Source of the DNA: Candidatus Kaiserbacteria bacterium
GTDB lineage: Bacteria > Patescibacteriota > Minisyncoccia > Phycocordibacterales > UBA2100
Assembly (NCBI GenBank): GCA_027083345.1
Contig: JALWOZ010000010.1
Span: forward strand, 7,301-71,300
DNA: 64,000 nucleotides
Reading direction: 5' to 3'
In this document: piece after piece, positions 6,470-33,955 of the stretch
Numbering within the stretch: the first letter of the stretch is position 1
Layout of the letters: each line of letters opens with the position of its first letter
Made by a program: the position numbers and the translations under genes
The notes under the pieces: generated by a model
Told to the model about the DNA's origin: nothing
The model's database searches: none
The model's input: only the letters and a program-made list of their open reading frames with translations

Positions 6470-6489
6470 AATGTTTTTAATAATTTTTA

Positions 6490-8466
6490 TTAATTTAAAT
6501 TAACCCTCTTTAATAACATTGCATTTGCTACAACTATTACGGTTGAAAGACTCATGATAAATGCTCCTATCTCCGGTCTTAGATAAAACCCAGCAAATGC
6601 AAACACCCCCGCTGCAGCTGGTATAGCTACAATATTATAACCAAGCGCCCATATAAGATTTTCAACCATCTTTTTGTATACTGCTTTTGAGAGTTTAATT
6701 AATCGCACAATATCAAGCGGATTACTCCTGGTTAGCACCACATCCCCTGCCTCAACTGCCACATCAGTACCGGCCCCAATGGCTACACCAACATCAGCTT
6801 GGGTAAGTGCTGGAGCGTCATTAACTCCGTCTCCCACCATAAGCACCTTACTACCATCCTCCTGCAACTCTTTTATATATTTATATTTATCCTCCGGTAA
6901 TACGTCTGCATAATATTTATCTATGCCAAGCTCCCCTGCCACAGCCTGTGCTACTTGCGTATTATCCCCTGTGAGCATTACTGGAGTTACCCCCAACTCT
7001 TTTAACTGCTTTATTGCTTCTTTAGCCTCAGGCTTTATTGTGTCTGCCAAGAGTATAGTGCCTAGTAAATTCTCGATACTTGCTACATACACAATAGTGC
7101 CCTGCACATCCTCTTTAGGTACTTTGATATTATACTCCTCCATTAACTTGGCATTACCAACCAAATACTCCTTACCTCTCAATGAGCCAGTTAATCCCTT
7201 GCCTGCTATGTTTTTAAAATTCTCTACATCTTTAATGTCAACACCATCGTCTTTAGCCTTATTTACAATAGTCTGAGCAATAACGTGAGAAGAGTATTGC
7301 TCAAAAGAAGCCGCTACACACAACAGCTCTGCATAACTTACTCCCTCTTGAGGAGTTATACTAGCAATGCCAAATACTCCCTCTGTGAGGGTACCTGTTT
7401 TATCAAATACTACTACATTTGCCTTTTTAACCACCTCAAGTTTAGAGAGATCTTTAACGAAAAAGCCGCTCTTGGTAGAGAGACTTGTGGCTATTGTTGT
7501 AACAGTTGGTATCGCTAAGCCCAATGCATGAGGACAAGCAATAACAAGTACCGTTATAGCCAGCGTAACACCAAAGACAAAAGGTTGCCCAAGCAAGAAT
7601 GTCCACACAACTAGAGTAAGGAGCGCCGTGATACCAGCAACAACCGTTAGTACACTCGCAGCTTTATCTGCGAGTTTTTGTGAGGTTGGCTTGGTGTTTT
7701 GTGCTTGCTCTATCAGTTGCTGTATCTGCCCCACTGTAGAGTCAGCACCTACACGAGTCACACGCATAGTAAAGGTAGTATCTACTACTATTGATCCTGA
7801 GACCAAACCATCACCCACACCTTTATTAACCGGCTTAGACTCACCGGATATTAAAGATTCGTCTATGTGCCCCTCGCCTTTGGCGATCTCACCGTCTGCC
7901 GGTACTCTCTCTCCTGGCTTTATTAATACTATATCTCCAACTTTCAACTCTGAGACTTCAATATCTTTGACCTCTCCAGAGGAGGTTTGTAAATGCGCAA
8001 TTGAGGGTAAGAGCTTAGCCACCTCTTGCAAAGCATTACCCGCTGCTGAGCTAGATTTTGCCTCTAAATAATGCCCGAAGAGTAGCACCCATATTAAAGT
8101 TGAGATCTCAAGATAAAACTCAATCCCTAGTGATGGTACAAATGTAGATACCACGGAGAAAGCGTATCCAGCAAGTACAGCCATAGAGACGAGCGTCATC
8201 ATGCCTGGCTTTTTCATCTCAAGCTCCATCTTTGCATGCTTAAAGAAAACCAGAGAAAAGTAAAATATCACCGTAGCAAGTACAAATGATATATATCTGC
8301 CATACTCAAATACTGGTAACCCTAAAGCATTGGCCACCACCTCATTTAATCCAACCAGTGGTATGAGTAAGAAGGTTACAATCCAAAATTTGTGCAAAAA
8401 TTCATCGGCAGAGCCATGCCCCATCCCAGGTGATCCATGCTGACTATGACAAGAATGTTCTTTCAT
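6490..8466 (-). CDS. copB: copper-translocating P1B-type ATPase (CopB-like, CPH motif, His-rich N-terminus)
   Basis: DKTGTLT, GDGVNDAPAL, TM6 motif IACPHALGLA (CPH = P1B-3 subtype), N-terminal MKEHSCHSQHGSPGMGHGS His-rich metal-binding stretch. Confidence 0.85.
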   Translation of the reverse strand: MKEHSCHSQHGSPGMGHGSADEFLHKFWIVTFLLIPLVGLNEVVANALGLPVFEYGRYISFVLATVIFYFSLVFFKHAKMELEMKKPGMMTLVSMAVLAGYAFSVVSTFVPSLGIEFYLEISTLIWVLLFGHYLEAKSSSAAGNALQEVAKLLPSIAHLQTSSGEVKDIEVSELKVGDIVLIKPGERVPADGEIAKGEGHIDESLISGESKPVNKGVGDGLVSGSIVVDTTFTMRVTRVGADSTVGQIQQLIEQAQNTKPTSQKLADKAASVLTVVAGITALLTLVVWTFLLGQPFVFGVTLAITVLVIACPHALGLAIPTVTTIATSLSTKSGFFVKDLSKLEVVKKANVVVFDKTGTLTEGVFGIASITPQEGVSYAELLCVAASFEQYSSHVIAQTIVNKAKDDGVDIKDVENFKNIAGKGLTGSLRGKEYLVGNAKLMEEYNIKVPKEDVQGTIVYVASIENLLGTILLADTIKPEAKEAIKQLKELGVTPVMLTGDNTQVAQAVAGELGIDKYYADVLPEDKYKYIKELQEDGSKVLMVGDGVNDAPALTQADVGVAIGAGTDVAVEAGDVVLTRSNPLDIVRLIKLSKAVYKKMVENLIWALGYNIVAIPAAAGVFAFAGFYLRPEIGAFIMSLSTVIVVANAMLLKRVNLN

Positions 8467-8468
8467 AA

Positions 8469-8918
8469 TTATTTAATCTTATTTTGAGTAGCAGATGTAT
8501 AATACAAATTGATAACATCCTCATGTTGCATTGAATAGTCTCCAAGCTCTGTACTCTCCTTACCATTAACAGTCATCTTCTCAAATTCACCAAAATCGCT
8601 CATCATATCCTTACCCCAAATTTTAAAGAATTCCTTCAATTTAACTTGATTTTTAGTTACACGACCTCCAAACTCCATATGTATTAACCCCTTATTACTA
8701 TCATCGTGAGTATGTATCGGATTGTGTACAGCTCCTATACCTATATTTGCTGGTATCTCCTGCTCCTCTCCATCTACAAATATATGCAGCTCTGGATGCC
8801 AATGTATGCCACGAGTAGTCACGACATTTGGATCACTATTTTGTAATTTTGCTGACCATGCAAACAAGCCAAATATTGCAATAATTGCTACGATTATCCA
8901 TATTGTTGTTTTTAACAT
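8469..8918 (-). CDS. N-terminally anchored His-rich protein, putative extracytoplasmic metal-binding protein
   Basis: Single N-terminal TM, then a His-dense region HWHPELH...HNPIHTHDD. The gene sits between copB and the MerT-like gene in the same operon. Confidence 0.3.
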   Translation of the reverse strand: MLKTTIWIIVAIIAIFGLFAWSAKLQNSDPNVVTTRGIHWHPELHIFVDGEEQEIPANIGIGAVHNPIHTHDDSNKGLIHMEFGGRVTKNQVKLKEFFKIWGKDMMSDFGEFEKMTVNGKESTELGDYSMQHEDVINLYYTSATQNKIK

Positions 8919-8940
8919 AATTTTAAATTTATTATATTAA

Positions 8941-9177
8941 TTAGTTTTCTTTATCCGCCTCACTTTCTTGTGTAGACACTTTACCTTTATTACATGTGCA
9001 TCTCGTCTTGTACACATAATAACCAGCGCCTACCACTAATACCCAAAAGATTAAGTGTATAAAAAAACCAAAACCTCCCATATACATATAATGCCCCTGA
9101 CCCCAAGAGTCTCCCATCATATCTCCACCATAGTCATTATCTTGCTGCCCTCCATGTGCTTCTGCTATATTTAACAT
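8941..9177 (-). CDS. small Met/Gly/His-rich membrane protein
   Basis: 78 aa, HYMYMGGFGFF followed by one TM and a CTC motif. Operon position suggests metal handling. Confidence 0.25.
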   Translation of the reverse strand: MLNIAEAHGGQQDNDYGGDMMGDSWGQGHYMYMGGFGFFIHLIFWVLVVGAGYYVYKTRCTCNKGKVSTQESEADKEN

Positions 9178-9210
9178 AATTTTATTTTATTAATTTTTTA
9201 ATTTTCTATA

Positions 9211-9660
9211 TTATTTTACATTTGGTACAGGACACTTGTCTTCGGCATATTCACAAAAGACACAACAATTTTTACTGTCTTTTGGTGTGCTTATTACCTC
9301 ACCGCATCCATTACATTTATAGAATGGTTGACAATTGTTGGTGGGGATAGTCTCAACTTGCACATGTCCACACTTTGGACAAGTTATTTTGGTTTTTTTA
9401 TCTTTAATGTTGTCCTCTCGCTCCTTCTGTAACTCACAACTTGCACATTTACCTGTTTTATATTTATAAAATGAATAAATAGTTACCACCACCATAACTG
9501 CAAGAGCTGGTAAAAGGACATAATCTAAATATGGCGTAAATACACTCAAACCAATTGCCGCCAGCAATATTACTAGAACAGGAGTAAAGCAACAAAGGGC
9601 TATAGCGATAGTGCCGCCTATTACTCCGTATAATTTTCTTTTAGCTTTTTTCTTATTCAT
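9211..9660 (-). CDS. MerT/MerF-like metal transporter (vicinal Cys in TM1) fused to C-terminal Cys-rich zinc-ribbon-like domain
   Basis: TM1 ALCCFTPVLVILLAAIGLS matches the MerT CC-x-x-P-L-V-L-I-A-L-G signature. The C-terminal 70 aa carry CPKC..CNGC..CCVFC..C. Confidence 0.45.
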   Translation of the reverse strand: MNKKKAKRKLYGVIGGTIAIALCCFTPVLVILLAAIGLSVFTPYLDYVLLPALAVMVVVTIYSFYKYKTGKCASCELQKEREDNIKDKKTKITCPKCGHVQVETIPTNNCQPFYKCNGCGEVISTPKDSKNCCVFCEYAEDKCPVPNVK

Positions 9661-9663
9661 ATG

Positions 9664-9945
9664 CTACCTTTTTAATTTATAAACTTTCAACACTTCATTT
9701 ATCGCTCTGTTTTCTTCACTCTTCCTCCCGCTTTGCATCTGATCTTTAACACATGTATGCAAATGTTGCTCCAATATTGTGTCTTCAAAAGAGCGTAACG
9801 CATTACGCACTGCACTAGTTTGGGTTATTAAATCTATACAATAGCGACCATCGGTAACCATCTTTTGCAATCCTCGCACCTGCCCTTCAATCTTCTTAAG
9901 ACGTATACTGTACTTCTTTTTGTCTGCTTTTGAATAATCCATCAC
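9664..9945 (-). CDS. csoR: CsoR/RcnR family metal-sensing transcriptional repressor
   Basis: 93 aa, RLKKIEGQVRGLQKMV...RYCIDLITQTSAVRNAL...H..C: the C-H-C copper-ligand pattern of CsoR. Confidence 0.8.
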   Translation of the reverse strand: MMDYSKADKKKYSIRLKKIEGQVRGLQKMVTDGRYCIDLITQTSAVRNALRSFEDTILEQHLHTCVKDQMQSGRKSEENRAINEVLKVYKLKR

Positions 9946-9951
9946 AAATCA

Positions 9952-9972
9952 GTATACCCCCTAAGGGTATAT
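9952..9972. promoter_or_regulatory. candidate CsoR operator: inverted repeat GTATACCC-N5-GGGTATAC immediately upstream of csoR
   Basis: Perfect 8-bp arms. From memory, CsoR operators are GC-core palindromes of the form TACCC...GGGTA. A direct repeat AATCAGTATAC occurs at about 9947 and about 9995. Confidence 0.45.
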
Positions 9973-9985
9973 ACTGCAAATGTAC

Positions 9986-10648
9986 TTATGCACAATCAGT
10001 ATACACATCTACATTATCTTTATTGGATAAAGCACATATTGGCTCAATATAGGACTCAGAAGTTTTAGACAAAGAACTTAGTCGAGCACATTTACCCTCT
10101 CCCGTAGTATATAAAACTATATGGTCAACACTCTCTAGCAAAAACCTAAGAGTAATGGTGATACGCTCTTTAAACTGATTATTGGTATTCTCATGTATAT
10201 ATCCCGTAACCCAATTATCAGTCTCTATGAACAATCTTCTAAATAGATCTTCATTTTCTGGCATAGGCAAAATCCCTGCAATATGTCCATCTGTACCCAT
10301 GCCAAGTAATGTGATTATCTTGCCTTCTGGATGTTGCCTTCGCCATCTTTTATATACCTCCTCCTCTATAGAAATTAAATTAACATTATGCTTTTTTATA
10401 TTCTTAAACCACTTTGTTTGTACCAGTCGCCGTGCATTACTATCTATCTCTCCTACATTGAGTCTTTCATCCACCAACCCTATACTCACTCTCTCATCAA
10501 TATTCTCAACGGCAATATACTCAAGTACACTCATTGCCGAGCCGCCTGACAAAAGTAATAAAACAGGAATACTTTTATATTCTGCCAAGAGTTCACCAAT
10601 ACGCTCTCCAGCGTCTTTACCAATTTGAGTACTTGTATGTAAATGCAT
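9986..10648 (-). CDS. pgl: 6-phosphogluconolactonase
   Basis: GMGTDGHIAG motif, diagnostic of Pgl/NagB-fold lactonases. Adjacent to gnd and zwf. Confidence 0.7.
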   Translation of the reverse strand: MHLHTSTQIGKDAGERIGELLAEYKSIPVLLLLSGGSAMSVLEYIAVENIDERVSIGLVDERLNVGEIDSNARRLVQTKWFKNIKKHNVNLISIEEEVYKRWRRQHPEGKIITLLGMGTDGHIAGILPMPENEDLFRRLFIETDNWVTGYIHENTNNQFKERITITLRFLLESVDHIVLYTTGEGKCARLSSLSKTSESYIEPICALSNKDNVDVYTDCA

Positions 10649-10655: not shown

Positions 10656-11588
10656 TTAATCAACTATTACTTTCAATTCGTACCCAAATACTTTACTAAC
10701 TTCTTGCATATAATTCTTTATATTTTGTTTAAATAATGGCGCACGAACTTTCTGTATTTTACCTATAACATAATAACTCACCGCCATCATAGTTGCATAA
10801 TTTGCATTCTCTGGGAGTGGTATGTGTAAGCGATTACCCTCTTTACCCCAAGCAGTATTACGCTCGGCTTCTGTACCAAAACTAATAAAGAGCTCGTCTC
10901 CAGGTACTACTGTCGTGGCATGAGCAACATACTCGGCAGTCTCTACATCTCGTGCAACTGTGCGTCCAAAGAGCTCAATAAACTTAACTTGCAACATACG
11001 GATAATCCCAGAAAAGCGCGATGGTACAATAAGATAATAGCGATCAAAGAGTGAGAAGTCTGATAATGTCAATTTATCTATCACCTCAATAATATGATTG
11101 TATATTTTCTGCGCATCCTCTTTTGTTGCGCTAAGAATCATAGCCATATAGGTACTGGTATTATATGTATAAGGCTCTCGGTTTTTAGGGTAAGAGTATA
11201 CTATATCTGCTGTCATTGCGGCAGTTGAGTCTGGGCTATTAGTCAAGAGTATGACCTGCTTGCCTAAATCCTTTGCTTTTTGTGCGATTATTGGTGCATG
11301 TTTTTCTCCACTCGCAGAGATAAGTACAACCCCATCTATATTATCTATATTCTTTAATTTCTCTTCATAGGTACTCTCACTGGCAAATATAGCATCCAAC
11401 TTCTCAAAAATAATCCTACCGGTAGCCTCTGCATTACCAGAGCCAACAATTAATGGGCGTTTATACATACTCACATCAATTTGTGGTAACTCTAATTGCA
11501 TAAAGAGCTCGAGAGCTCCCAAAACCACAGTATCTAAATCTGGGAGATTGTCGAGAGTAAAACTTTTTAATATTTTTTGATTTTTCAT
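10656..11588 (-). CDS. hypothetical protein within zwf-gnd-pgl operon (possible OpcA-like G6PD assembly factor or SIS-like protein)
   Basis: Start taken at the internal Met (MKNQKILK) so it does not overlap gnd. No confident motif. Position between gnd and pgl mirrors opcA in actinobacterial zwf operons. Confidence 0.3.
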   Translation of the reverse strand: MKNQKILKSFTLDNLPDLDTVVLGALELFMQLELPQIDVSMYKRPLIVGSGNAEATGRIIFEKLDAIFASESTYEEKLKNIDNIDGVVLISASGEKHAPIIAQKAKDLGKQVILLTNSPDSTAAMTADIVYSYPKNREPYTYNTSTYMAMILSATKEDAQKIYNHIIEVIDKLTLSDFSLFDRYYLIVPSRFSGIIRMLQVKFIELFGRTVARDVETAEYVAHATTVVPGDELFISFGTEAERNTAWGKEGNRLHIPLPENANYATMMAVSYYVIGKIQKVRAPLFKQNIKNYMQEVSKVFGYELKVIVD

Positions 11589-11595
11589 ATATCTC

Positions 11596-12525
11596 TTATG
11601 AGCTAACTTTTGTATTACCTGCATGTCCTCCAAACATATTGCGCATCGTTTGTATAAGTTTACCCGCATAGCTCGGATCTTTCTGACTCTCAATCCTAGC
11701 ATCAAGCGCATGTTGAATAACTCCTGCATCTATACCCATATTTCCAGCCACCTTAAGGGTCCACTCTCCCTCACCAGAGGCACCGGCAGATCCACTCACC
11801 TCTGCAAGATCTTCGCCATAAGTTTGGAATCCTTTTTGTAACCATCCCACTAATCTACTTGTTATTACACTTTGATGTTGGTAGATGTCTGCCACATCTA
11901 GCATCTTTAGGTCGAAGTCTGAATGCTTCATGATATTAAAACCTTCTGCTATTGCTTCCATCATACCGTATTCGATACCATTGTGCACCATCTTTACAAA
12001 GTGCCCGGCACCACTCCTACCCATATATTTATAAGCATCTTTAGCAGATATATCTTTAAACAAATCCTCTAAATAGTTATATGTATCTTTTTCTCCTCCA
12101 ACCATTACGCAAACTCCATTCTTTGCACCTTCAGGACCACCGGAGACTCCAGCGTCAATATATTTTATTCCCTTTTTACTCATCTTTTTGCTTCTCTCTA
12201 TAGATAACTCATATAGTGAATTGCCTCCGTCTATCACAATATCTCCAAAACTTAGTAAGAGCCCTAAATCATCAAGTACTCCGTCTACATAATTATGTGG
12301 CACCATAAGCCAAATAACCCTCTCCCCGGGGTCTCCACTATTGTTTACTAGATCCTTAAGATCTTTATATCCCACACCACCAACCTCTATAAACCTATCC
12401 ACAGCATCATCGTTCACATCAGTAGCAACCACCTTCCACCCTTTAGTTAAGAGCCTGTTAGCCATATTAAAGCCCATTTTACCCAACCCAATATAACCAA
12501 TCTTCTTACTTATTATTTTTGTCAT
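11596..12525 (-). CDS. gnd: 6-phosphogluconate dehydrogenase (decarboxylating), short YqeC/GndA-like form
   Basis: N-terminal Rossmann IGYIGLGKMGFNMANRL. 309 aa short-form 6PGDH. Confidence 0.75.
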   Translation of the reverse strand: MTKIISKKIGYIGLGKMGFNMANRLLTKGWKVVATDVNDDAVDRFIEVGGVGYKDLKDLVNNSGDPGERVIWLMVPHNYVDGVLDDLGLLLSFGDIVIDGGNSLYELSIERSKKMSKKGIKYIDAGVSGGPEGAKNGVCVMVGGEKDTYNYLEDLFKDISAKDAYKYMGRSGAGHFVKMVHNGIEYGMMEAIAEGFNIMKHSDFDLKMLDVADIYQHQSVITSRLVGWLQKGFQTYGEDLAEVSGSAGASGEGEWTLKVAGNMGIDAGVIQHALDARIESQKDPSYAGKLIQTMRNMFGGHAGNTKVSS

Positions 12526-19677: not shown

Positions 19678-20466
19678 ATGTATTTAGAAATCTTACTCTC
19701 TGGTGTAGTTATAGTACTCACATCTCTCTCTGGCAAGCTCGTTATGTGGGGAACATTAGGTCGATATTTGCAAAAGCATCTTAAGTACCTAGTAACATTA
19801 GCACTCGGAGTATTCTCCGTTACCCTCTACTTAATGTTTGGAGAGGTCCTTGAACTCTCTACATCTTGGTGGCAGACCTCAATAGCCCTAGCACTCGGAG
19901 CGGTTGCACTAGAGGCTGTGCACCGCCTATTGCCAGACGCTCACCATCACCACGGCGCAGACAGAGGCGAATGTTGCGAGACTTGTGACTGCAACAAAAC
20001 GCACACTCATAGTCGCAAGATAAATCCAAAGCGTATCCTCCTAGGAGATGCACTACATAACATAGGCGACGGTGTGGCTATCGTATCTGCATACTTGATC
20101 AGCCTTGAGGCAGGCCTTGTGCTTACGGCCGGCATCTTCTTGCACGAGTTTGTACAAGAGACCTCTGAGTTCTTCATCCTTAAAGAGGTCGGTTACTCAA
20201 CTAAGAAGGCACTCTTAAGCAACCTATTGGTACAAAGCTCTATTTTTATAGGTATTATACTTACAATTATAGTCTCTAACACTACTACTTATACTCCGTT
20301 AATAATAGCCTTCTCTGTTGGAGCTCTAGCTTATATTATATTGCGTGACTTGCTACCACACACACTTGAGCGTATTAAGCACGGCGGAGGGTTAACTAAG
20401 CACTTACTCGCCTACACCATAGGCTTTATAATTATGCTCGCTATAGCCAGCTTACTACCTGGTTAA
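19678..20466 (+). CDS. ZIP family metal cation transporter (ZupT-like) with His/Cys-rich loop
   Basis: HNIGDG and HEFVQE metal-site motifs. Loop HHHHGADRGECCETCDCNKTHTH. Confidence 0.6.
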   Translation: MYLEILLSGVVIVLTSLSGKLVMWGTLGRYLQKHLKYLVTLALGVFSVTLYLMFGEVLELSTSWWQTSIALALGAVALEAVHRLLPDAHHHHGADRGECCETCDCNKTHTHSRKINPKRILLGDALHNIGDGVAIVSAYLISLEAGLVLTAGIFLHEFVQETSEFFILKEVGYSTKKALLSNLLVQSSIFIGIILTIIVSNTTTYTPLIIAFSVGALAYIILRDLLPHTLERIKHGGGLTKHLLAYTIGFIIMLAIASLLPG

Positions 20467-20863
20467 ACAACGAATGTAGGATTACTGCATTTACTAGTCC
20501 AAAGAGTATATACCATCGCTTCTTTAAGGTCGAGAAGGTTATAATCAAAACTGTGAGCATATGCATAGGCATTGTATACAATAATCTCTGCCCAAATATA
20601 CTCATGTCTCCAATCTGCAATATGTTATTTAAGTACAACATACTCTCAGAGAGTCCAAACAATAATCCAAAAATAGCAGCCGCTATCAGCTTACTCTTGC
20701 TACTACTTAACCTACTTATGAGTACAAGTACCACAAGTGCTTTTACTAGCTCCTCTACAACCTCTGAGTAGCCGGTGAGCGCAACCACAGGTATAAGCAC
20801 CATAGGCAATATTAACCCAGCTAGTATTATAAATATAAAGTGTATTGGATTATTGTTTGGCAT
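20441..20863 (-). CDS. PrsW-like/CPBP-like intramembrane protease homologue (short, 140 aa)
   Basis: 4 TMs carrying EELVKAL (EExxK), FGLSE (FxxxE) and HSLFN (HxxxN), in the PrsW order. It starts 5 nt after the giant gene stop. Confidence 0.45.
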   Translation of the reverse strand: MPNNNPIHFIFIILAGLILPMVLIPVVALTGYSEVVEELVKALVVLVLISRLSSSKSKLIAAAIFGLLFGLSESMLYLNNILQIGDMSIFGQRLLYTMPMHMLTVLIITFSTLKKRWYILFGLVNAVILHSLFNQVVSWL

Positions 20864-20867
20864 AACA

Positions 20868-23800
20868 TTACTTGAGCACCTCTACATACTCCCCTGAGAC
20901 CCAACCGTCTATGCCCTTGGGGATTATTATATAATACCAACCGTCCTTCTGTGCCTCATACACATACTCCTTGCCCGGCAAAACCTTGCCCAACTTAGTT
21001 GAGCTAGCACTTGGCTTGCCTCGTACATTTAGCCAACCTGTCTCTGTGTCTTTAACCTTAACTTTAGATACTAATTGTCTTGTAGAAGTTGCAATAGATT
21101 GCTTAACAAGGGAGTCGACAGAGGTGTTTTGTAACTCACCTTTATTCTTAATACTTTGAGTAAACGTACTTATATTTGTTGAGGTTGACACCTTCTCAAT
21201 ATTTACAGATTCCACAGTGTTTATGTTTTTATCATACACTATTGGTTCTTTATCCTTACTCATAAATGCAGGTACAGATAACATAACCATACCTATGACA
21301 AAACCAGGAAAACTAACTAAAATAAGGACACCGATGGCACTACCACTAAATACCTTTATTATATGCACTAATCGCCCCCAAAATGTCTCAGGATCATGCG
21401 CCTCTGCAGATATATCCTCAATACCCTCTTTTATAATTAGAGTCTCTTGAGGGTAACGCAGACCTGGTATTCTCCTACCGTGCCTACCTAAGGCAGTTAT
21501 AAGTAAAGTCTGTTGACGCCACATCGCAAAGACAATTGCTGCTAGTAGACCAAAACCAAATACTATAGCTAACACTATACCCCAAGTAGAGAAGGTTTGT
21601 ATACCTCCAATGCTACCCACTAACCCATTTGAAGCTCCTGAACTGGTTACTAAATCTTTTAATTTATTCATTAATTGATCAATCTGTTTAACCTTACCAA
21701 CATTATTACGATATACAACTATATGTCTCTGTGGAGTAGAGTAACTCGTAGCTTGAGATTGGGCAACACTATCTACTAAAGACTTCAACTCCTCTACTAA
21801 TAATGTACCTCTAGCCTCATATTGAGTACCGCTTAATACCTTAGCATAACTCTCTGCTTGCTTTTTAATATTTGCTAATTCTGCCAAATCAAAAACCCAG
21901 ATATCGGTCATCTCTACCTTCTTGGTTATAGACTCCCCTCCACCAAGAGTTATTTCAGCGGATACAAAATAATTTTGAGCATTGGGGTCATACTCAACCT
22001 TTAACCCGTCTGCATTCATAATACTCTCCGGTGTAGCTTCTTTTGGCAACAATTGTTTAAATTTAACCAATTGTTTTTTATCGCTAGGGTTTGTAATTAT
22101 AAAATGCAACTCTACTGAATTAAATTTCATAAATGTCTCTACTATAGGTGCTGTACCATTATTTGTAACAACTGCGTTAATTGTGTTAGAGACGGCTTTA
22201 AGCTCACTAAGCTTATTTTGCACATCTTTAAGTGTCTCAGTATTTTGCTCACTTACCTGTAAAAGCTTTTTAAGGCCGTCTACTTTTACATTTATATTCA
22301 CTTCTTTAGCGCCATCAAGAGCCTCTATAAGTTGCTGAGATGTTAACTGGAGTTGGTTAATAGTACCCACACTACTACCAATAATTGGACCATTGCCTCC
22401 ACCAGCTGAGCTAACCGACTCCTCTACAGCAGTGAAGGAGCGTGACGCAGACGACGACTCTGTGCCATAATAGTTGACCACTTTAAACCAGTAGTCTCCA
22501 ACATCTGGCACGGTTGCTGTAAGAGTCTTATTAAAGTCTACCCCAGGAGTAACCAGCTTGGCCGCTTGACCGTAGTATATATCATCGTTACCACCACACT
22601 GATTGTCTTGCGAGTCTACCACACACCACTCGTACTGATATTCATATGAGGCATTACCCTCATTAGAGATTGTAATATCAGCAGATATAGAGTCTACAGT
22701 AGAATCAGATATTGAGTTAATTATGACCTGAGATGGAGCTCCGGTAGCCTGCCAATAATCTACCTTGTGTAAAGTATTACCACCAACTACAACTGTTACA
22801 TCGGACTCATATAAACCTGATGTAGAGCCAGTGGGTAATGCATATGTATATTCATATTCTCCGGTACCAAGTGACGTCATCGTAGTAGTAGCAACCGCCA
22901 CAGCCCTAGATGCATCATAAATGACTATGGTGGGTGTTGAGTCTGCATCTGTTGGAGTTGTCTCGTAATCCTCTATTGTTAATTTAGTCCTATAAGTATT
23001 ACCAACTTGCACAGCATTTGGGCCACTAAGCTCTACATTATAGAGAGATTGTTGAGAGCTACGCAAAGCCGACACGGCAGTAGCCAAAGAGTCTATCTTA
23101 GTGTCTACTGATGAGAGCAACGTATTGATGCTGTTGACCTTAGACTGTATGTCCGTAACTTTAGTCTGTATATCCGTAACTTTTGTATTTGTATCCACCG
23201 TAGTGCTGGCGATGGTATCTACCACCGTGTCTATAGTGTCTATCTTCGTCTCATTGGCATTAACCTCTGTGATAATGTCTGACTTCGCTGCACCAAGTGA
23301 ACCTGCGGTTGTATGCTCAGAGAGTTGCTCATCAAGTACGGAGTCTGCTATGGTAGCCTTTGACAACGCGCCGGTATTTATAACATTACATCCATTACTG
23401 TTATCTGTGAGCTCTACATTACCTCGCACCACTACCGTGCCGGCCGTACAGGTGGTATCTATTATTGCATGACCGGATACAAAGTCCATACTCACAGAGT
23501 CAGATGATCCTGTCTTATTGATCAACTTAATCCCTCCTGAGTACCCTCTTAAACTCAAATTATGCCCACTGCCACCGAAGTCTATAATTGGAGTACTCGT
23601 ACCCGCTACACTACTCCTTGAGTCTATTATGTTAATTGTCTCATTGCTTGAGCCGGTTAAAGTTGTGGTGGCTGAGGTAAACGCTGAGTTAAATATAACT
23701 CCGGTAAATCCAGACAAACCGTTAACAAAACTATCTCTAACCACAACATCTCCATTAACCGTACCACTAAGAGTAAGGTTATCAAAAGATGCTCCGGTAG

Positions 23801-26800
23801 TGTCTCCTCCACCTAAAGTCATGGAGCTCACATTAGCCGAACTACCACTAAAGGCACAATTCCGTAGCACAGCCGAGCCAGGCACCGTGATAGGCCCTCT
23901 TATAGAGTAGTGTGTTAGAGAGTTAGCGGAGCCGATAGTAAGAGCGTCTGTAATGTTATCTACCGGGTGTTCTTGATTACCCATAGGGTACACTGTGCCC
24001 GAGCTACCTGATATACTGTCTATGTACACAGAGGCATTTGCAAAATCCTTAAATCGCTTTAAGAGCCCAACAGGGGTTGTTGAGATATAAGTTGTGCCAT
24101 CATTGATTATCTTAACTTTAGCCTGATACACATCTTCGTCAGGCAAGCCGGACGGAGATTTGCTAAAGTGGAAGGTACCATTACTTGAAGGTGAAGAGCT
24201 TGTGGCATTATAAACAACGGTACCACTATTATTCTCTATCCATACCTCGGCACTTGTAGGGTTTGATATAACCGCGCCGTTAAGCTCTAGCCATGCATTA
24301 ATCTTAAGTGTGTCCGTATCTGTCTCAAAGCCTACTGCCGCCTTTGTTTGATTGAGCACACTCTGTGCCGTCATTGTGAGGTTGAGTGTGCCGTCTGTAG
24401 TTATGCTCTGCGTTGTCGTCTTGGTATTATACCCCACCTTATCCATAACAATATCAAACGAGCCATACGGCCAAGAGTAAGTAAACGGACTGCTTTTAGA
24501 TGCAGCACCGGTGCCGTCCCCGGGGTTAAATGTGATACTGCTAAGATGGTCTGAGGTAGACGAGTCTTGCACATTCACCGTCATACTTGCATAACGGATT
24601 GTAAAGTCGGCATCCGACTCGTCATAAGCGTCTGAGTCTGATGAGTCTACTATCTTGATCTTTGTTGTAGTGCTATTTGAAAGGTCTGGGAGTGTCCAAG
24701 AGTATGAGCCTGTGTTTGACGTTGATGTAGCTATTGTGTATGGATAGCTTGAGCCACCATCTGTTGAGTAAAATATGTCAACACTTGAGACACTTCCGCT
24801 TGTCGTCCAGCTTATTGTCTTGCTCGGTGTTAGAGCTATCCAATATTCAGAGCCGTTTGGAGAAGTTATGGTAAGTCCACCAACTATCTTATAAGTGTCA
24901 GAATCATCTTGTATGCTCTGTTGGTCAGAGATTATACGCACCTTTGTACTTGTGCCCTGCTCAGAGCTTGGGATGTTTGTCCATGAGTATGAGCCTGTGC
25001 CAGACGCACCTATGGAGACTCCCGTAGCTATTGTGTAGTCAAAGCCGTTACCGTCTCCACTGTCTGCCTTGAGTGTTACTGTTGTTGCCGGCGAGCCCGC
25101 ATAGCTCCAAGTAATTGTCTTACTACTCCCTACTGCCCAAGCGTTGCCAGAGGCGGGTGCGGTGATAGTTAATGAGCCCTCTGTGGTAAAACTCGTGCCT
25201 GTAGAGTATGTAGACCACGCAGTGCCATCGTGGTACCGGACTCTAAAATAGTAGGTAGTGTTAGCTGCCAGCTGTGTGGCACCGGAGAGATTGTTGGCAA
25301 AGGTGCCGTTAGAGCTATTGATAGTTGTACTCGTCTCTGCAGAGCCGGCAGTACGCGTCCACTCCGGAGAACTAAAGTCTGAGTTGTCGTCCACCTCCCA
25401 TTGTGCATTGGTCTGAGCATCACTATCTGCATCACTATATGCAGATGCAGAGAGAGTCGTATTGCGCACCTGCAGAGTTGCGCCATTTGTCGGGGATGAG
25501 TTTGTTGGAGTATTTGGGGGCACATTAAGAAGTGTATAATCTACTGTCACACTCTTAAGTTCTGGTGTATAAGAGGCATCATGACTGTCTAAGAATGCTT
25601 TATATTGAAAATACTGATTGTCTGGAACATTAGTCAGTGTGAGTGTCGGTGTAGTTATGGTGTTGGTCGTGCCCCACTCATAATAGGTAGAGGCTGTGCC
25701 ATCTGGGCCAGCGAAACTCTCTCCATTACAAGCAGAATCATTACAACTCCTTACTTGATACTTCATATTCAAAACTCCTCGTTTATAGATATTTGCTATC
25801 TCAGTAGCTGACAAAGCCCTATTCCACACCGCCACTTCGTCAATAAGCCCATTCCAATTTTCAACACTTCCACCTGAACCATTAGAATAAGCACCAATAC
25901 TTACCGGATCGCTATTTGAACTTAAAGTAACTGAACCGACATTAGTAGAGCTTTCTAATGTACCATCAACGTAAATCCTCGCATATGTGCCATCGTACAC
26001 TCCCACAACATAATGCCATTGGCCATCAGATACACTAGTTATACTATCACCAGAGTTAAGCCAACTTCCGTTATTGATGTAGAATCTTGCCTTGTCCGCC
26101 CCAGAATCCCATCCTGCACCTAAAGCAAATACTCCTGTGGCCGGTGTCTGTGTTTGTTTTCTAACTATAGAACGGCCTGTCCCTATATTTCCATCGGTAC
26201 CATCCCATCTAACCCACGCTCCCGCTGTTATAGATGTAAGACCATCCAGAGCATCTATATCTCCGAAAGTGATCCAATCATTACTACCGTCAAATCCTAT
26301 TGCATCATTTAACTTTCCAGTTTGGGCATATAACGCTCCGTTATATGTACCACTATTCCCTTGTCCAGATGAATCAGTAATAGTCCCTGACGCCTCATTG
26401 AGATGTGCCAATAGCTTATTACCTGTCATATCAATATTACCTGTGGTGTATGCCGTCTCTACTCCCGCATTATCTGACAATTCCTTACCGATTGGACGCT
26501 CTGGAGTCCACGCAATAGAATTCCAAGTAGCGTTTGCTGTTGCGTCTTTGATGGCTGAGGTATATGAGCCCGAGTGTCTCTTTTGATGTTCATATATAGA
26601 GTGTATCTCTGTGGTACTCAACTCTCTATTCCACACAGCAACCTCATCCAAAGATATATTTGCAAAGCCGGAAGTGCCGTTAAACTCAGATCCTAATTTA
26701 AGAGTATAGCCCGAATCGTCTATACCAGAAGTATTCGTATGGCTTGCACTAGCCCACGAAGCTCCATCTTTATATAACTTAAATCCTGTTGGAGTCATAA

Positions 26801-27620
26801 CAAACACTATATGGTGCCAAGTATCTAATGTAAGCCCACTACCTTGTGCCAGTGCAGCATTACCGCCAGAATAACAAAAGAACTCAATTTGTCCCGCACT
26901 AGTGAGTCGTGCACCACATCCAGATGCCCCATCAGATGTGTCAAAAATATAATTACTAGTAGCAAAGGTATGCGGATTAAGCCACAAACTAACCGTCATG
27001 GTAGTATATGCATCAATATTCTCTCCTGTGTCTATATAATCATTAACGCCATCAAACTTTATAGCTGTACCCATCTTGGCTGTCTGAGAATATGTGGGTC
27101 CTCCATTTACCGTACCAGTATTATTATTACCAGAGGTGTCTGCCACAGAACCACTAGACTCATCTAGATGGTAGAGAAGCGTATTACCTGTCATGTCTAT
27201 CCAGCCAGTAGAAGTCGCATTCTCAGGGAAGGTGTCTAATATATTATTAGTATTAGTACTCTCAACCCAACTATTAACCCCATTCCACTGCGTATAATTA
27301 TATGTACCAGCATCAAAATTAGCTTGTGAGTTATCTACAGTTGTGGCTGCCTCAGTGGGGCTGGCAGAGTAGAGCGTATACGCCCAGTAACCAGCAAAGG
27401 CCAATGTGCCTAATACCCAAATACCTAGCAAGAGACGCAGTGGCCTAAATGTAGGACTAGACATTATGATTTTTATATCTCCTAACGTCGTAGGCTTTTG
27501 GGGTCTTTTAGTCTTAATTTGACTATTATGCCTGTCTTTTATATCATTCTTAGAGACCTGTCTTAAATCTAAAACAGTATCTTGCCTAACATTATCTTTA
27601 ATATTTTCATCACTACTCAT
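20868..27620 (-). CDS. giant (2250 aa) membrane-anchored surface protein
   Basis: N-terminal 60-aa cytoplasmic tail plus a TM. Two LamG repeats (DMTGN.LL.HL.E.SG...DGVNDYI...LDEVAVWNR.LS..EI). Two Ig-like units (ITAPASGNAWAVGSSKTITWSY / ITSPNGSEYW...TISWTT). Heptad-like repeats (VDT.ASTTVDTNTKVTDIQTKVTDIQSKVN), two TMs at about aa 1955-2065, and C-terminal GWLNVRGKPS...GWVSGEYVEV SH3b. Confidence 0.8.
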   Translation of the reverse strand: MSSDENIKDNVRQDTVLDLRQVSKNDIKDRHNSQIKTKRPQKPTTLGDIKIIMSSPTFRPLRLLLGIWVLGTLAFAGYWAYTLYSASPTEAATTVDNSQANFDAGTYNYTQWNGVNSWVESTNTNNILDTFPENATSTGWIDMTGNTLLYHLDESSGSVADTSGNNNTGTVNGGPTYSQTAKMGTAIKFDGVNDYIDTGENIDAYTTMTVSLWLNPHTFATSNYIFDTSDGASGCGARLTSAGQIEFFCYSGGNAALAQGSGLTLDTWHHIVFVMTPTGFKLYKDGASWASASHTNTSGIDDSGYTLKLGSEFNGTSGFANISLDEVAVWNRELSTTEIHSIYEHQKRHSGSYTSAIKDATANATWNSIAWTPERPIGKELSDNAGVETAYTTGNIDMTGNKLLAHLNEASGTITDSSGQGNSGTYNGALYAQTGKLNDAIGFDGSNDWITFGDIDALDGLTSITAGAWVRWDGTDGNIGTGRSIVRKQTQTPATGVFALGAGWDSGADKARFYINNGSWLNSGDSITSVSDGQWHYVVGVYDGTYARIYVDGTLESSTNVGSVTLSSNSDPVSIGAYSNGSGGSVENWNGLIDEVAVWNRALSATEIANIYKRGVLNMKYQVRSCNDSACNGESFAGPDGTASTYYEWGTTNTITTPTLTLTNVPDNQYFQYKAFLDSHDASYTPELKSVTVDYTLLNVPPNTPTNSSPTNGATLQVRNTTLSASAYSDADSDAQTNAQWEVDDNSDFSSPEWTRTAGSAETSTTINSSNGTFANNLSGATQLAANTTYYFRVRYHDGTAWSTYSTGTSFTTEGSLTITAPASGNAWAVGSSKTITWSYAGSPATTVTLKADSGDGNGFDYTIATGVSIGASGTGSYSWTNIPSSEQGTSTKVRIISDQQSIQDDSDTYKIVGGLTITSPNGSEYWIALTPSKTISWTTSGSVSSVDIFYSTDGGSSYPYTIATSTSNTGSYSWTLPDLSNSTTTKIKIVDSSDSDAYDESDADFTIRYASMTVNVQDSSTSDHLSSITFNPGDGTGAASKSSPFTYSWPYGSFDIVMDKVGYNTKTTTQSITTDGTLNLTMTAQSVLNQTKAAVGFETDTDTLKINAWLELNGAVISNPTSAEVWIENNSGTVVYNATSSSPSSNGTFHFSKSPSGLPDEDVYQAKVKIINDGTTYISTTPVGLLKRFKDFANASVYIDSISGSSGTVYPMGNQEHPVDNITDALTIGSANSLTHYSIRGPITVPGSAVLRNCAFSGSSANVSSMTLGGGDTTGASFDNLTLSGTVNGDVVVRDSFVNGLSGFTGVIFNSAFTSATTTLTGSSNETINIIDSRSSVAGTSTPIIDFGGSGHNLSLRGYSGGIKLINKTGSSDSVSMDFVSGHAIIDTTCTAGTVVVRGNVELTDNSNGCNVINTGALSKATIADSVLDEQLSEHTTAGSLGAAKSDIITEVNANETKIDTIDTVVDTIASTTVDTNTKVTDIQTKVTDIQSKVNSINTLLSSVDTKIDSLATAVSALRSSQQSLYNVELSGPNAVQVGNTYRTKLTIEDYETTPTDADSTPTIVIYDASRAVAVATTTMTSLGTGEYEYTYALPTGSTSGLYESDVTVVVGGNTLHKVDYWQATGAPSQVIINSISDSTVDSISADITISNEGNASYEYQYEWCVVDSQDNQCGGNDDIYYGQAAKLVTPGVDFNKTLTATVPDVGDYWFKVVNYYGTESSSASRSFTAVEESVSSAGGGNGPIIGSSVGTINQLQLTSQQLIEALDGAKEVNINVKVDGLKKLLQVSEQNTETLKDVQNKLSELKAVSNTINAVVTNNGTAPIVETFMKFNSVELHFIITNPSDKKQLVKFKQLLPKEATPESIMNADGLKVEYDPNAQNYFVSAEITLGGGESITKKVEMTDIWVFDLAELANIKKQAESYAKVLSGTQYEARGTLLVEELKSLVDSVAQSQATSYSTPQRHIVVYRNNVGKVKQIDQLMNKLKDLVTSSGASNGLVGSIGGIQTFSTWGIVLAIVFGFGLLAAIVFAMWRQQTLLITALGRHGRRIPGLRYPQETLIIKEGIEDISAEAHDPETFWGRLVHIIKVFSGSAIGVLILVSFPGFVIGMVMLSVPAFMSKDKEPIVYDKNINTVESVNIEKVSTSTNISTFTQSIKNKGELQNTSVDSLVKQSIATSTRQLVSKVKVKDTETGWLNVRGKPSASSTKLGKVLPGKEYVYEAQKDGWYYIIIPKGIDGWVSGEYVEVLK

Positions 27621-28174: not shown

Positions 28175-28296
28175 ATAAATTATAGAATAGCATATTAACC
28201 GATACAAATGAAAGAGTGACATAGTGGTTATATAGCATGCCAATTATGGTACTGAAAATATGACCCTCTCGGTCATTTGAATTGTCACATTACTGC

Positions 28297-28365
28297 TGCC
28301 AGACTAGGATTCGAACCTAGATAGCGGGTACCAGAAACCCGAGTCCTACCATTAGACGATCTGGC
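28297..28365 (-). tRNA. tRNA-Gln(CUG)
   Basis: The minus-strand sequence folds as a cloverleaf. Acceptor GCCAGAU/GUCUGGC, anticodon stem CGGGU/ACCCG with loop UUCUGGU, T-loop GGUUCGAAUCC. Coordinates plus or minus 3. Confidence 0.6.
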
Positions 28366-28555
28366 AATACTTCGCGCTACGCGCTACGAACTGCACAGCA
28401 ATGAAGCTGTCTGCAATTTATACCATTTTTCTAATATTTTTCCACTTATGTCTTATCCTCTGTCTAATCGTTATCAACATGGTGTAAGAAAAACTTAATA
28501 TAATCGTCTATACTTAAAAGGTACGTATAGAATTAATAAACTTAATAAATAAAAT

Positions 28556-29253: not shown

Positions 29254-29805
29254 ATGACAGTAGAAGATGCCTTTAACAAAGCATATGACGATTATGCCGA
29301 TGCTCTTTTTAGGCATTGTATGTTTAGATTGTCTCACCGCGAACGTGCCTTAGAGTTGGTACAAGAAGCATTTATGAAGACTTGGGACACAGCACAAAAA
29401 GGAGAGAGAATTAAAAATTGGAGAGCTCTTCTGTATCGTTATCTTAATAATCTAATAATAGATGAATATAGGAAAAAGAAGCAGGAGTCACTAGACTCCA
29501 TATTAGACAAAGAGGGTGTTAGTGAAGCCAACTTTGCAGACTTAAAAACCAACTCATTGGAGGAGGTCATAACCCTACTAGACTCTAAACAAATTGCAAA
29601 ACATCTAAATATGGAATTATATAAACTACAAGACAATTACAAACGAGTATTGATACTAAGATATATAGATGGATTACGCATAAAGGAGATAGCTAAAATC
29701 CTTAAAGAGACAGAGAATACTGTATCTGTACATCTAAATAGAGCATTGAAAAAGTTAAAAAGCAATTTACTTAATAATGACCCCTTAATAATGCAAAAAA
29801 TATGA
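29254..29805 (+). CDS. ECF-type RNA polymerase sigma factor (sigma-70 regions 2 and 4)
   Basis: Region 4 HTH LRYIDGLRIKEIAKILKETENTVSVHLNRALKKLK. Region 2 DAFNKAYDDYADALFRHCMFRL. Confidence 0.75.
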   Translation: MTVEDAFNKAYDDYADALFRHCMFRLSHRERALELVQEAFMKTWDTAQKGERIKNWRALLYRYLNNLIIDEYRKKKQESLDSILDKEGVSEANFADLKTNSLEEVITLLDSKQIAKHLNMELYKLQDNYKRVLILRYIDGLRIKEIAKILKETENTVSVHLNRALKKLKSNLLNNDPLIMQKI

Positions 29806-30743
29806 TGAGTAAGGTAGACAAAAAAATACAGTATCTCTTGAAGTCTCTGGGTAGAGGTATACACATGCACGTAAGAGAGAAAGAGGCTATGCGCTCACGA
29901 TTACAAGAGTATATAAGACTCAAGCCAATTAAAGTAGAAAATGTAGAGAAAAAATACATTTACATAAACTTTAAAAAGTATTTTGGATATAAATTTATAC
30001 CTGCTCTACTTATAATTATACTATTGGTTGGCTCTGGAGGAGCTGTCGCCTTTGCTTCCGAGTTAGCACTGCCAGGAGACACCCTATATGGAGTAAAAGA
30101 GTTTATTGAGGAATCTAAAGCAAAAATATTGATAAGTGATGAAGCCAAGATAAATTGGGCAGAACAAAGAGCAAAAAGACGTGAGCAAGAGGCAAAGCAA
30201 CTAGCTAAATTAGGTCGACTAAACGAGAACAATAGCAAGTTGATAGAAAATAAAATATTAAAACATAAATTACATGTACAAAAAATATTAAAAAAGATTG
30301 AGAAGCGTAATCCCGCAAAAGCCAAAATTATTAAAGCTAGACTACACAAATTAATACTAACCAAACCAAAGAGACGAGAATTGCATGACAAAAAAGGCGT
30401 TACTGAAGATCACCCGTCTTTTGTAGAGAAAGTTAAAAATAAGAGAAGTTTAAATACAAAAGATGATACCAAAAGACAAGGGATTAGACGAATTAAGATT
30501 GAGAATATTAAGAAGGATTTATTTGAAGTGCTTAAAAAACAACAAGAACAAAAACCTAAATTAAAGAACATTAATAAAAGTGAAGAGCATAAACAAAATA
30601 AAACAACCACAAGAAAACAAATTAAAGATAAGCCACTTGAACATAGAGAGGTTATAAAGCGCTCTGTTACAAATAAATTAAAAGATAGACGCAACAACAT
30701 AAGAAAAATAAAGGAGGAGAGTAATCCCCATAAAGAAGAGTAG
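29802..30743 (+). CDS. putative anti-sigma factor / membrane protein with DUF5667-like domain and extremely basic C-terminal tail
   Basis: Start overlaps the sigma stop by 4 nt. Single TM, then LALPGDTLYGVKEFIEE (a DUF5667-like PGD.LY motif). The C-terminal 170 aa are K/R-rich. Confidence 0.4.
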   Translation: MMSKVDKKIQYLLKSLGRGIHMHVREKEAMRSRLQEYIRLKPIKVENVEKKYIYINFKKYFGYKFIPALLIIILLVGSGGAVAFASELALPGDTLYGVKEFIEESKAKILISDEAKINWAEQRAKRREQEAKQLAKLGRLNENNSKLIENKILKHKLHVQKILKKIEKRNPAKAKIIKARLHKLILTKPKRRELHDKKGVTEDHPSFVEKVKNKRSLNTKDDTKRQGIRRIKIENIKKDLFEVLKKQQEQKPKLKNINKSEEHKQNKTTTRKQIKDKPLEHREVIKRSVTNKLKDRRNNIRKIKEESNPHKEE

Positions 30744-33537: not shown

Positions 33538-33609
33538 GGCTCGGTGGCGAAGTGGTAACGCTGCGGGTTGCAAACCCGCCATGCACCGGTTCGATTCCGG
33601 TCCGGGCCT
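33538..33609 (+). tRNA. tRNA-Cys(GCA)
   Basis: GGCTCGG acceptor, anticodon stem GCGGG/CCCGC with loop TTGCAAA, T-loop GGTTCGATTCC, discriminator U. Confidence 0.7.
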
Positions 33610-33752
33610 CACTAAAGTTGTAGCACGCAAACTTTAGTACCAAATGTATGATATATTATTATACATAATCATCTACCTGGATGATGCAAAAAGTATAACA
33701 GCGGTAGACATAAGAGTTCTCAGTTGTTTTTTTGCTCAAACAGGCACCCTAT

Positions 33753-33834
33753 GCCGGGATGATGAAATTGGTAGACATAAGAGACTTAAACTCTCTGGGC
33801 GCAAGCCGTGCGGGTTCAAGTCCCGCTCCCGGCA
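33753..33834 (+). tRNA. tRNA-Leu(UAA)
   Basis: GCCGGGA acceptor, anticodon stem AGAGA/TCTCT with loop CTTAAAC, long variable arm, T-loop GGTTCAAGTCC. Confidence 0.7.
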
Positions 33835-33845
33835 CATAACACAAA

Positions 33846-33876
33846 AACTGCGAAGTGTTACTTCGCAGTTTTTGTA
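33846..33876. terminator. bidirectional rho-independent terminator between convergent tRNA genes
   Basis: AAAAACTGCGAAGT-GTTA-ACTTCGCAGTTTTT: a perfect 14-bp stem flanked by A5/T5 on both sides. Confidence 0.6.
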
Positions 33877-33882
33877 ACTCAG

Positions 33883-33955
33883 TCCGCCCAGCAGGACTCG
33901 AACCTGCGACACACGGATTAAAAGTCCGTTGCTCTACCAGCTGAGCTATGGGCGG
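33883..33955 (-). tRNA. tRNA-Lys(UUU)
   Basis: Minus-strand cloverleaf with D-arm GCUCAGCUGGUAGAGC, anticodon stem ACGGA/UCCGU with loop CUUUUAA, T-loop GGUUCGAGUCC. The acceptor appears to begin with C1-G72, which is unusual, so the ends are plus or minus 2. Confidence 0.6.

Follow-up and report, generated by a model that had tools for sequence, protein, structure and literature searches.

A 64,000-nucleotide (nt) stretch of the Candidatus Kaiserbacteria contig JALWOZ010000010.1 (the window, always meant at its full length) carries a conserved two-gene cassette of Patescibacteria, the candidate phyla radiation (CPR). The cassette joins a gene for a giant surface protein to a gene for a minimal PrsW-family protein, here called mini-PrsW. 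A known protease family is thus found in a new, conserved, phylum-wide partnership. The two genes are as follows.

20868-27620, minus strand: giant surface protein gene, 2250 amino acids (aa), from open reading frame (ORF) and translation; one copy within the window
20441-20863, minus strand: mini-PrsW gene, 140 aa, from ORF; five-helix PrsW-family glutamic-type intramembrane protease

We infer that mini-PrsW is a dedicated processing protease that would cut the giant protein at, or just beyond, the outer membrane boundary of its second transmembrane helix (TM2), and we give this reading a probability of about 0.5. It is suggested by the near-universal one-to-one linkage of the two genes, strong selection on the catalytic residues, the over-conservation of the anchor helix, and the predicted position of both the active site and the anchor motif at the outer membrane face.

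Patescibacteria are ultra-small bacteria that account for much of bacterial diversity and spend their lives on host cells. The construction and control of their attachment surface are, to our knowledge, little understood. A conserved pair consisting of a variable, giant adhesin-like protein and its own minimal protease offers a testable handle on maturation and release, and extends the reach of the PrsW family past sigma-factor signalling and toxin fusions. In full-text searches of the literature, no paper was found that links PrsW to either CPR or Patescibacteria. A preprint about giant genes in bacteria leaves PrsW unmentioned, and a description of the gene pair seems not to exist so far. 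The statement, made from the sequence alone, that no such pairing is described stands in this respect, with the qualification that PrsW-toxin fusions were proposed in 2012 (PMC3482391).

Conservation of the gene pair

The coordinates and minus-strand orientation given for both ORFs in the sequence-only reading agree with the ORF list and the translations. The junction between the giant gene and the short gene reads TAA-TGTT-ATG, with 4 nt between the genes and the ATG beginning at the 5th nt past the stop. Because this gap is only 4 nt, translational coupling of the two genes is plausible. Across the pairs, intergenic gaps range from about -8 to +21 nt.

The PrsW-like gene directly adjoins a gene bearing the C-terminal module of the giant protein in 44 of the 46 informative distinct loci, drawn from Patescibacteria genomes and metagenomes. 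A scan of species-representative genomes yielded 17 loci, of which 11 carry CPR-group labels (Patescibacteria group, Kaiser-, Falkow- and Nealsonbacteria, Paceibacterota, Parcubacteria, Saccharibacteria) and 6 carry other or generic labels; in 16 of these 17 loci, tblastn with aa 1470-2110 of the giant protein located the module immediately upstream, with both genes on one strand. The metagenome scan contributed 22 more distinct informative loci, every one of them paired (22/22). Linkage and layout are kept at a module identity of 28-29% in locus L028.

The surroundings of the pair differ from locus to locus. In four contexts on long contigs, a gene of 2327, 2075, 2262 or 1140 aa has its stop codon 1-21 nt ahead of the PrsW-like gene, and the outer flanks are unrelated: pilM with a ribosomal operon, adenylate kinase with rpsL, ParB with rpoB, and ribonucleotide reductase. 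Over all loci, the outer flanks also include TypA and PfkB. Locus L031 (8001-9928) encodes a 495-aa module protein beside the PrsW-like gene in convergent orientation, with 20 nt between the stop codons, which makes the linkage independent of co-transcription. In L029, the fragment upstream of the PrsW-like gene is an SH3b C-terminus.

Were the adjacency meaningless, a product of chance or of purely local gene order, loci such as L025 and L027, which carry the protease without a partner beside it, would be expected. This explanation is effectively refuted by the synteny counts: 44 of 46 loci are paired over several Patescibacteria lineages, with unrelated flanks and, in one case, convergent genes. 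The same counts bear out the dedicated pairing that had been proposed from the sequence alone.

Some loci depart from the common layout or carry additional features. In L014 (3-4064), the PrsW-like gene (2677-3126) lies between two stalk/TM2-module genes, one of at least 890 aa upstream and one of 313 aa downstream, which suggests that one protease may serve two partners. L005, and that locus alone, has a gene for a 205-aa Peptidase_M50 protein (site-2 protease family) at 11070-11687, ~600 nt downstream of the PrsW-like gene; this neighbour is probably coincidental. Most cassette-bearing genome loci have CPR-group labels, but some bins (L017, L021, L022, P0040) are labelled ‘uncultured Gammaproteobacteria’ or ‘Bacteroidales’ and, given the content of their loci, may be mislabelled Patescibacteria bins. 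The giant protein is closest, with 64% identity, to that of L011, whose bin is labelled Candidatus Kaiserbacteria. Both proteins of the window occur in public collections, where a cluster look-up gave neither names nor taxonomy for them.

The short protein and its giant partner

The 140-aa protein matches the Pfam family PrsW-protease (PF13367) with 37.8 bits (E 1.9e-9, cut-off 23.5) over profile positions 51-175 of 196. This is its sole Pfam match, and the PrsW assignment made from the sequence alone thus holds above the gathering threshold. The motif triad EExxK, FxxxE and HxxxN was located in full, at E37-E38-x-x-K41, F69-x-x-S72-E73 and H130-x-x-x-N134, and a fourth conserved residue, H101, was found in addition. 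Published work on PrsW describes a matching arrangement, with EExxK/R within TM helix 3, a His on the core helix after it and HxxxD/N on the final one (PMC4602095).

A total of 34 homologues of 129-168 aa were found, one of them, from a Staskawiczbacteria bin, labelled by NCBI as ‘PrsW family glutamic-type intramembrane protease’. All of the aligned homologues (26/26) match PF13367, and their invariant columns include E37, E38, K41, S72, E73, R93, P99, H101, H130, F133 and N134. A profile search over 1.84 billion representative proteins returned 284 clusters at E <= 1e-10. Because the best 150 of these 284 clusters are all 85-190 aa long, the short PrsW-like proteins form, on the evidence of the profile, a coherent minimal-core clade or subfamily. 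Retention was counted over the 176 clade members of at least 120 aa: E37, E38, E73, H101, H130 and N/D134 are jointly kept in 172, and, residue by residue, E37 and E38 are kept in 176, K41 in 173, H101 in 175, H130 in 173 and N134 in 172 (D in 2 more). NCBIfam holds no model for the short protein, nor for the C-terminal module of its partner.

We modelled the short protein using AlphaFold2 (AF2), which gave a predicted local distance difference test score (pLDDT) of 91.7 and a predicted template-modelling score (pTM) of 0.87. The model has helices at residues 5-30, 33-47, 55-76, 87-112 and 116-139, with a short extra one at 78-84. Hydropathy and the model indicate an N-terminal helix followed by a four-helix catalytic core with an Rce1/APH-1-like fold, i.e., five TM helices in place of the four counted in the sequence-only reading. 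The model is confident, and its closest solved structure is APH-1, a relative within the PrsW/CPBP superfamily (PMC6588880). The mini-PrsW profile gave no match at E <= 10 among the sequences of solved structures. Most PrsW representatives have eight TM helices (PMC3482391), and the 140-aa, five-helix protein does not have this usual full-length architecture. Its score, motifs and fold place it in the PrsW family (PF13367/MEROPS M82), with predicted proteolytic activity.

The basic loops of the short protein, at aa 52-58 and 113-116, are predicted by the positive-inside rule to lie inside. This would place every catalytic residue near the outer end of its helix and the active site near the outer leaflet, facing the extracytoplasmic side. 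The earlier label ‘site-2-type’ is wrong, because PrsW is the site-1 protease of RsiW (PMC4602095, PMC3482391).

In the giant partner, the constant element is a stalk of ~220 aa together with a signature anchor helix (G..G..GGIQT..TWGI...FAMWRxQ). The stalk, the anchor and what follows them in the window are listed below.

21615-22283, minus strand: membrane-proximal stalk, ‘sub-module B’, aa ~1780-2002 (~220 aa); long helix, beta-sandwich and helical bundle
21513-21614, minus strand: signature juxtamembrane motif and TM2, aa 2003-2036, SIGGIQTFSTWGIVLAIVFGFGLLAAIVFAMWRQQ; candidate recognition/cleavage element
21375-21512, minus strand: basic loop, aa 2037-2082, predicted cytoplasmic; sequence RQQ...GRHGRRIPGLR, poorly conserved across loci
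21261-21374, minus strand: third hydrophobic segment (TM3), aa 2083-2120, ~37 aa, kinked; from hydropathy, lineage-specific
20880-21032, minus strand: C-terminal SH3b domain (SH3_3, PF08239), aa 2197-2247; Pfam 42.9 bits against a cut-off of 27, lineage-specific

Sub-module B, which includes a conserved P-x-x-H-I-x-x-[YF]-R-x-N, is confined to PrsW-linked proteins; used alone as a protein-database query it gave 5 matches only, a number limited by the word index. Across 36 sequences, the full signature reads P-x-x-H-I-x-x-[YF]-R-x-N ... LK-x-LV ... G-x-x-G-x-x-GG[IV]QT-x-x-TW[GA]I ... GF ... F-x-MWR-x-Q, with its core, G..G..TW.I..G, conserved at 90% or above. TM2 comes in a type I (GGIQTFATWGI...FAMWRHQ) and a type II (LFGVSTTMTWAI...RSRALE). 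The fraction of sequences carrying the majority residue is 0.70 in the juxtamembrane motif and 0.66 in the TM2 core, against 0.50-0.61 in the rest of the module and 0.37 after the helix. Since the motif and TM2 are the most conserved parts of the module, and what follows TM2 is variable, the helix appears to have a role beyond mere anchoring.

The C-termini of 18 sequences, the window included, were compared. After TM2, 6 of them stop within ~10-40 residues, 3 add a further hydrophobic segment only, and 9 have TM3 and sequence aligning to the SH3b region (the window is among these; the stretch in L018 is partial). Because the C-termini vary in this way, the layout of three TM segments and an SH3b domain, which the sequence-only reading had stressed as unusual, is lineage-specific: TM3 is absent in 6/18 and SH3b-aligning sequence is present in 9/18. 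The SH3b domain itself was correctly named, as the SH3_3 match above threshold attests. Two late TM segments are likewise present, though ~50 residues away from the span of aa 1955-2065 first given for them; hydropathy puts a strong one at ~2007-2036 and a long one at ~2083-2120. The AF2 model divides the third segment into helices at 2080-2093 and 2095-2114 (pLDDT ~57). By the positive-inside rule, the basic loop at aa 2037-2082 is predicted to be cytoplasmic, which would place the SH3b domain, a domain of cell-wall-binding type, outside. In the L003 orthologue (3012-9995, 2327 aa), the C-terminus bears two tandem SH3b domains, not one.

The remainder of the giant protein, from the N-terminus onwards, comprises the following.

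27438-27620, minus strand: K/R-rich tail, ~61 aa, predicted cytoplasmic from sequence, ending in a conserved HPQF[KR]PLR-like motif
27366-27437, minus strand: first hydrophobic segment, aa ~62-85, Kyte-Doolittle 1.56 (moderate)
26601-27053, minus strand: Laminin_G_3 (LamG) unit 1, aa 190-340, Pfam PF13385, 79.3 bits, cut-off 27.6
25794-26291, minus strand: Laminin_G_3 unit 2, aa 444-609, Pfam PF13385, 96.8 bits, cut-off 27.6
24591-25190, minus strand: two Kre9_KNH-type immunoglobulin (Ig)-like units, aa 811-1010, Pfam 39.2 bits, cut-off 24.6, in two stretches
23286-24038, minus strand: Ser/Thr/Gly-rich region, aa ~1195-1445, from composition; no Pfam match
22416-23273, minus strand: ‘sub-module A’, a heptad coiled coil (aa ~1450-1530) and two beta domains (to aa ~1735); weak coiled-coil Pfam matches

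Most of the architecture proposed from the sequence alone is found here. The N-terminal tail of ~61 aa is followed by the hydrophobic segment at aa ~62-85, both LamG units exceed the Laminin_G_3 threshold, and the two Ig-like units correspond to the above-cut-off Kre9_KNH match within aa 811-1010. The heptad repeats are visible at aa ~1465-1510 (TKVTDIQ/TKVTDIQ/SKVNSIN/TLLSSVD/TKIDSLA/TAVSALR), with the weak coiled-coil matches. Three details changed. The FN3-like region reduces to a sub-threshold Ig match (Ig_Rha78A_N, 20.4 bits against a cut-off of 27.4), the beta-helix suggested for the Thr/Ser-rich span, although possible at aa ~1195-1445, drew no Pfam match there, and the exposed loop between the first and second hydrophobic segments is ~1920 aa long rather than ~1870.

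The segment at aa ~62-85 would be a signal-anchor; a signal that can be cleaved (AFA|G) is another possibility. This N-terminal anchor is not constant: some relatives have a long tail and a TM segment with HPQF[KR]PLR, the tail motif being conserved in L003, L007, L020 and L024, and others have classical signal peptides. The ectodomain also differs by lineage, with LamG confined to the subgroup of the window and MG2/Ig-type domains in others; in the window it resembles an adhesin or fibre. Sub-module A has a wider distribution. More than 60 homologues, smaller secreted Patescibacteria proteins of 320-950 aa, match aa ~1490-1735 alone at 40-57% identity, and this part (22416-23153) looks like a general, widespread building block of CPR surface proteins. 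These homologues carry precomputed Dockerin_1/MG2 Pfam tags and an N-terminal signal peptide, and are without a C-terminal TM helix.

Proposed processing and its relation to known systems

In the proposed mechanism, mini-PrsW would dock laterally on the signature anchor helix and cut at the outer boundary of TM2 or just beyond it, near G-x-x-G-x-x-GG[IV]QT-x-x-TW[GA]I. Both the active site and the GGIQT/TW motif are predicted to lie on the same, outer membrane face. In the window protein, the cut would detach the ectodomain, at its C-terminal end, from a stub of TM2, loop, TM3 and SH3b. The fibre would then be retained by its N-terminal anchor alone; were that anchor a signal peptide that is cleaved off, the fibre would be released. 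Where relatives have classical signal peptides, the entire ectodomain would be shed or handed over.

Several points weigh against this proposal. Docking, cleavage, its site and its consequence are all inferred, and in two loci, L025 and L027, the protease lacks the adjacent partner. The side on which the SH3b domain lies hinges on the 37-aa third segment, which is kinked and of low confidence in an AF2 model of the C-terminal module that is itself only partly confident (mean pLDDT 64). Furthermore, the identities of PrsW and module do not co-vary over 20 loci (Mantel r = 0.14, not significant, a value reached by 279 of 2000 permutations). The PrsW proteins do not split by TM2 subtype either, with a between-type identity of 0.58 for PrsW and 0.24 for the TM2 region, and no columns of the PrsW-like proteins discriminate the subtypes. 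Given neither co-variation nor clustering by subtype, helix-specific co-evolution and sequence-specific recognition of the helix are both unsupported; recognition, if any, would have to rest on a few residues common to both TM2 subtypes, or on the stalk.

The small residues in which the anchor helix is rich (GFGLLAA) are typical of helix-helix packing, and would also suit a non-proteolytic partner, with mini-PrsW acting as a scaffold or chaperone that stabilises or inserts the anchor helix. In gamma-secretase structures, APH-1 packs against the single TM helix of nicastrin. Both cases pair a small polytopic protein of the CPBP/PrsW superfamily with the single TM helix of a protein with a large ectodomain, and APH-1 as the closest solved structure hints in the same direction. 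APH-1, in contrast, is non-catalytic (QExxR), occurs in eukaryotes and belongs to an aspartyl protease complex of four subunits. We regard a scaffold role as unlikely: the full Glu/His catalytic set is kept in 172/176 clade members, whereas a pure scaffold would hardly keep every catalytic residue, and APH-1 itself has lost the EE pair (PMC6588880).

Processing by mini-PrsW could alternatively be part of protein sorting. All members have a motif, a TM helix and R/K residues, an element that is near-terminal in 6/18 C-termini and is followed by 214 residues in the window. The PEP-CTERM/exosortase, PGF-CTERM/archaeosortase and GlyGly-CTERM/rhombosortase systems, known from Haft's work, combine a motif-TM-basic signal with a dedicated polytopic enzyme. 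As in these systems, the surface protein of the cassette carries a short signature motif followed by a TM helix and then basic residues, and a membrane enzyme co-occurs with it. The cassette differs in the enzyme family, which is PrsW, in a pairing that is one-to-one and adjacent instead of one enzyme with many scattered substrates, and in the 80-300 residues (TM3, SH3b) that follow the signal in the window and about half of its relatives. An exosortase, archaeosortase or rhomboid enzyme was rejected, the only Pfam match of the short protein being PrsW-protease. In such a sorting system, a minimal PrsW-type ‘sortase’ would act on a C-terminal signal composed of the GGIQT-TW motif, a TM helix and basic residues. 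It would take off the anchor and pass the giant adhesin on to a lipid, the S-layer or the cell wall, and the SH3b stub would serve in some lineages as a wall-bound receptor. We hold this to be rather improbable; if true, it would add a new class of C-terminal sorting enzyme beside sortase, exosortase/archaeosortase and rhombosortase.

Cleavage of the single-pass RsiW at site 1 is the only established function of PrsW (PMC4602095), and two genes near the cassette raise the question of such a role here.

29254-29805, plus strand: extracytoplasmic function (ECF)-type sigma factor (Sigma70_r2/r4), divergent from the giant gene, 1.6 kb away
29802-30743, plus strand: 313-aa membrane protein, sub-threshold DUF5667 match (25.9 bits against a cut-off of 27)

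These genes overlap by 4 nt and are a possible sigma/anti-sigma pair (29254-30743). In the canonical role, mini-PrsW would make the site-1 cut in the DUF5667-like anti-sigma factor, and the giant protein would be a sensor or regulator instead of the substrate. A related sigma factor lies inside the L010 locus, and another directly follows the L014 cassette, at 4159-4695. A sigma factor near the cassette is seen, however, in only 3 of the ~21 distinct loci tested (the window, L010 and L014), against 44/46 for the module gene, and there is none among the called genes of L003, L005, L007, L009 and L028. We consider this role a poor prospect. The sigma factor was rejected as a conserved partner, as tblastn and phmmer with the sigma factors of the window and L014 found it only in L010 and L014 among the loci searched, and a PrsW/RsiW-type signalling module was likewise rejected, with a sigma factor near the cassette in ~3/21 loci.

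The processing reading nonetheless shares much with PrsW (YpdC) and RsiW of Bacillus subtilis. Common to both are PF13367, EExxK, the His of the next-to-last core helix, HxxxD/N and the four-helix catalytic core, and in both the enzyme is membrane-embedded; PrsW cuts a membrane-anchored protein extracytoplasmically, as mini-PrsW is proposed to do. Unlike the longer, multi-helix B. subtilis enzyme, mini-PrsW has 140 aa and five helices, and it is linked to a giant surface protein in place of an anti-sigma factor, with no consistent sigma linkage.

PrsW domains fused to polymorphic toxins, RHS filaments included, were proposed as releasing peptidases by Zhang, Aravind and colleagues in 2012 (PMC3482391). 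As in the cassette, PrsW is there tied genetically to a large secreted or filamentous protein, with a proposed role in processing or release. Theirs is an N-terminal fusion with a C-terminal toxin and an immunity gene, whereas the cassette has a separate downstream gene, no toxin domain, and a C-terminal stalk and anchor helix as the conserved partner element. A PrsW-dependent polymorphic toxin was rejected, since the protease gene is separate and the giant protein ends in SH3b or a bare TM helix. The link to toxins could also suggest self-protection, in which the short protein, akin to CPBP/Abi bacteriocin-immunity proteins, would guard the producer from toxicity of the giant protein; among the CPBP/Abi relatives of PrsW are proteins with putative roles in bacteriocin processing and immunity (PMC4602095). 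Against this, Pfam and NCBIfam scans detected no toxin, nuclease, peptidase or pore-forming domain in the giant protein, and the element conserved alongside the protease is a stalk and anchor, not an effector domain. We therefore judge self-protection very unlikely.

The cassette pairs a giant adhesin-like protein with a putative dedicated protease, as does LapA/LapG, although cutting is a proposal here. In LapA/LapG, a dedicated protease cuts the retention element of a giant adhesin and so controls surface tethering. LapG, unlike mini-PrsW, is a soluble cysteine protease in the periplasm of Gram-negative bacteria, is under the control of LapD and c-di-GMP, and cuts an N-terminal retention module; neither component is homologous to the cassette proteins.

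At about 130-150 aa, the cassette protease is probably the smallest natural PrsW/CPBP catalytic core, which makes it attractive for structural and mechanistic study of glutamic intramembrane proteolysis. The anchor signature and the stalk could become family models, allowing annotation of proteins that are now ‘hypothetical’.

Genomic surroundings in the window

Beyond the sigma/DUF5667-like pair, the following neighbours were recorded.

19678-20466, plus strand: ZIP-family metal transporter gene, converging on the mini-PrsW gene, with 3' ends overlapping by 26 nt
28295-28366, minus strand: tRNA-Gln(CTG), between the ASCH gene and the sigma region
33538-33955: cluster of tRNA-Cys, tRNA-Leu and tRNA-Lys

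Past the ZIP-transporter gene lies a TypA gene. On the 5' side of the giant gene come an ASCH-domain gene, tRNA-Gln and then the divergent genes for the ECF-type sigma factor and the membrane protein. Beyond the tRNAs, no further Rfam families were found in the window, and its low G+C content (32-45%) is in keeping with a Patescibacteria genome. The 3' overlap of the ZIP-transporter and mini-PrsW genes recurs in L001, an independent assembly with the same sequence.

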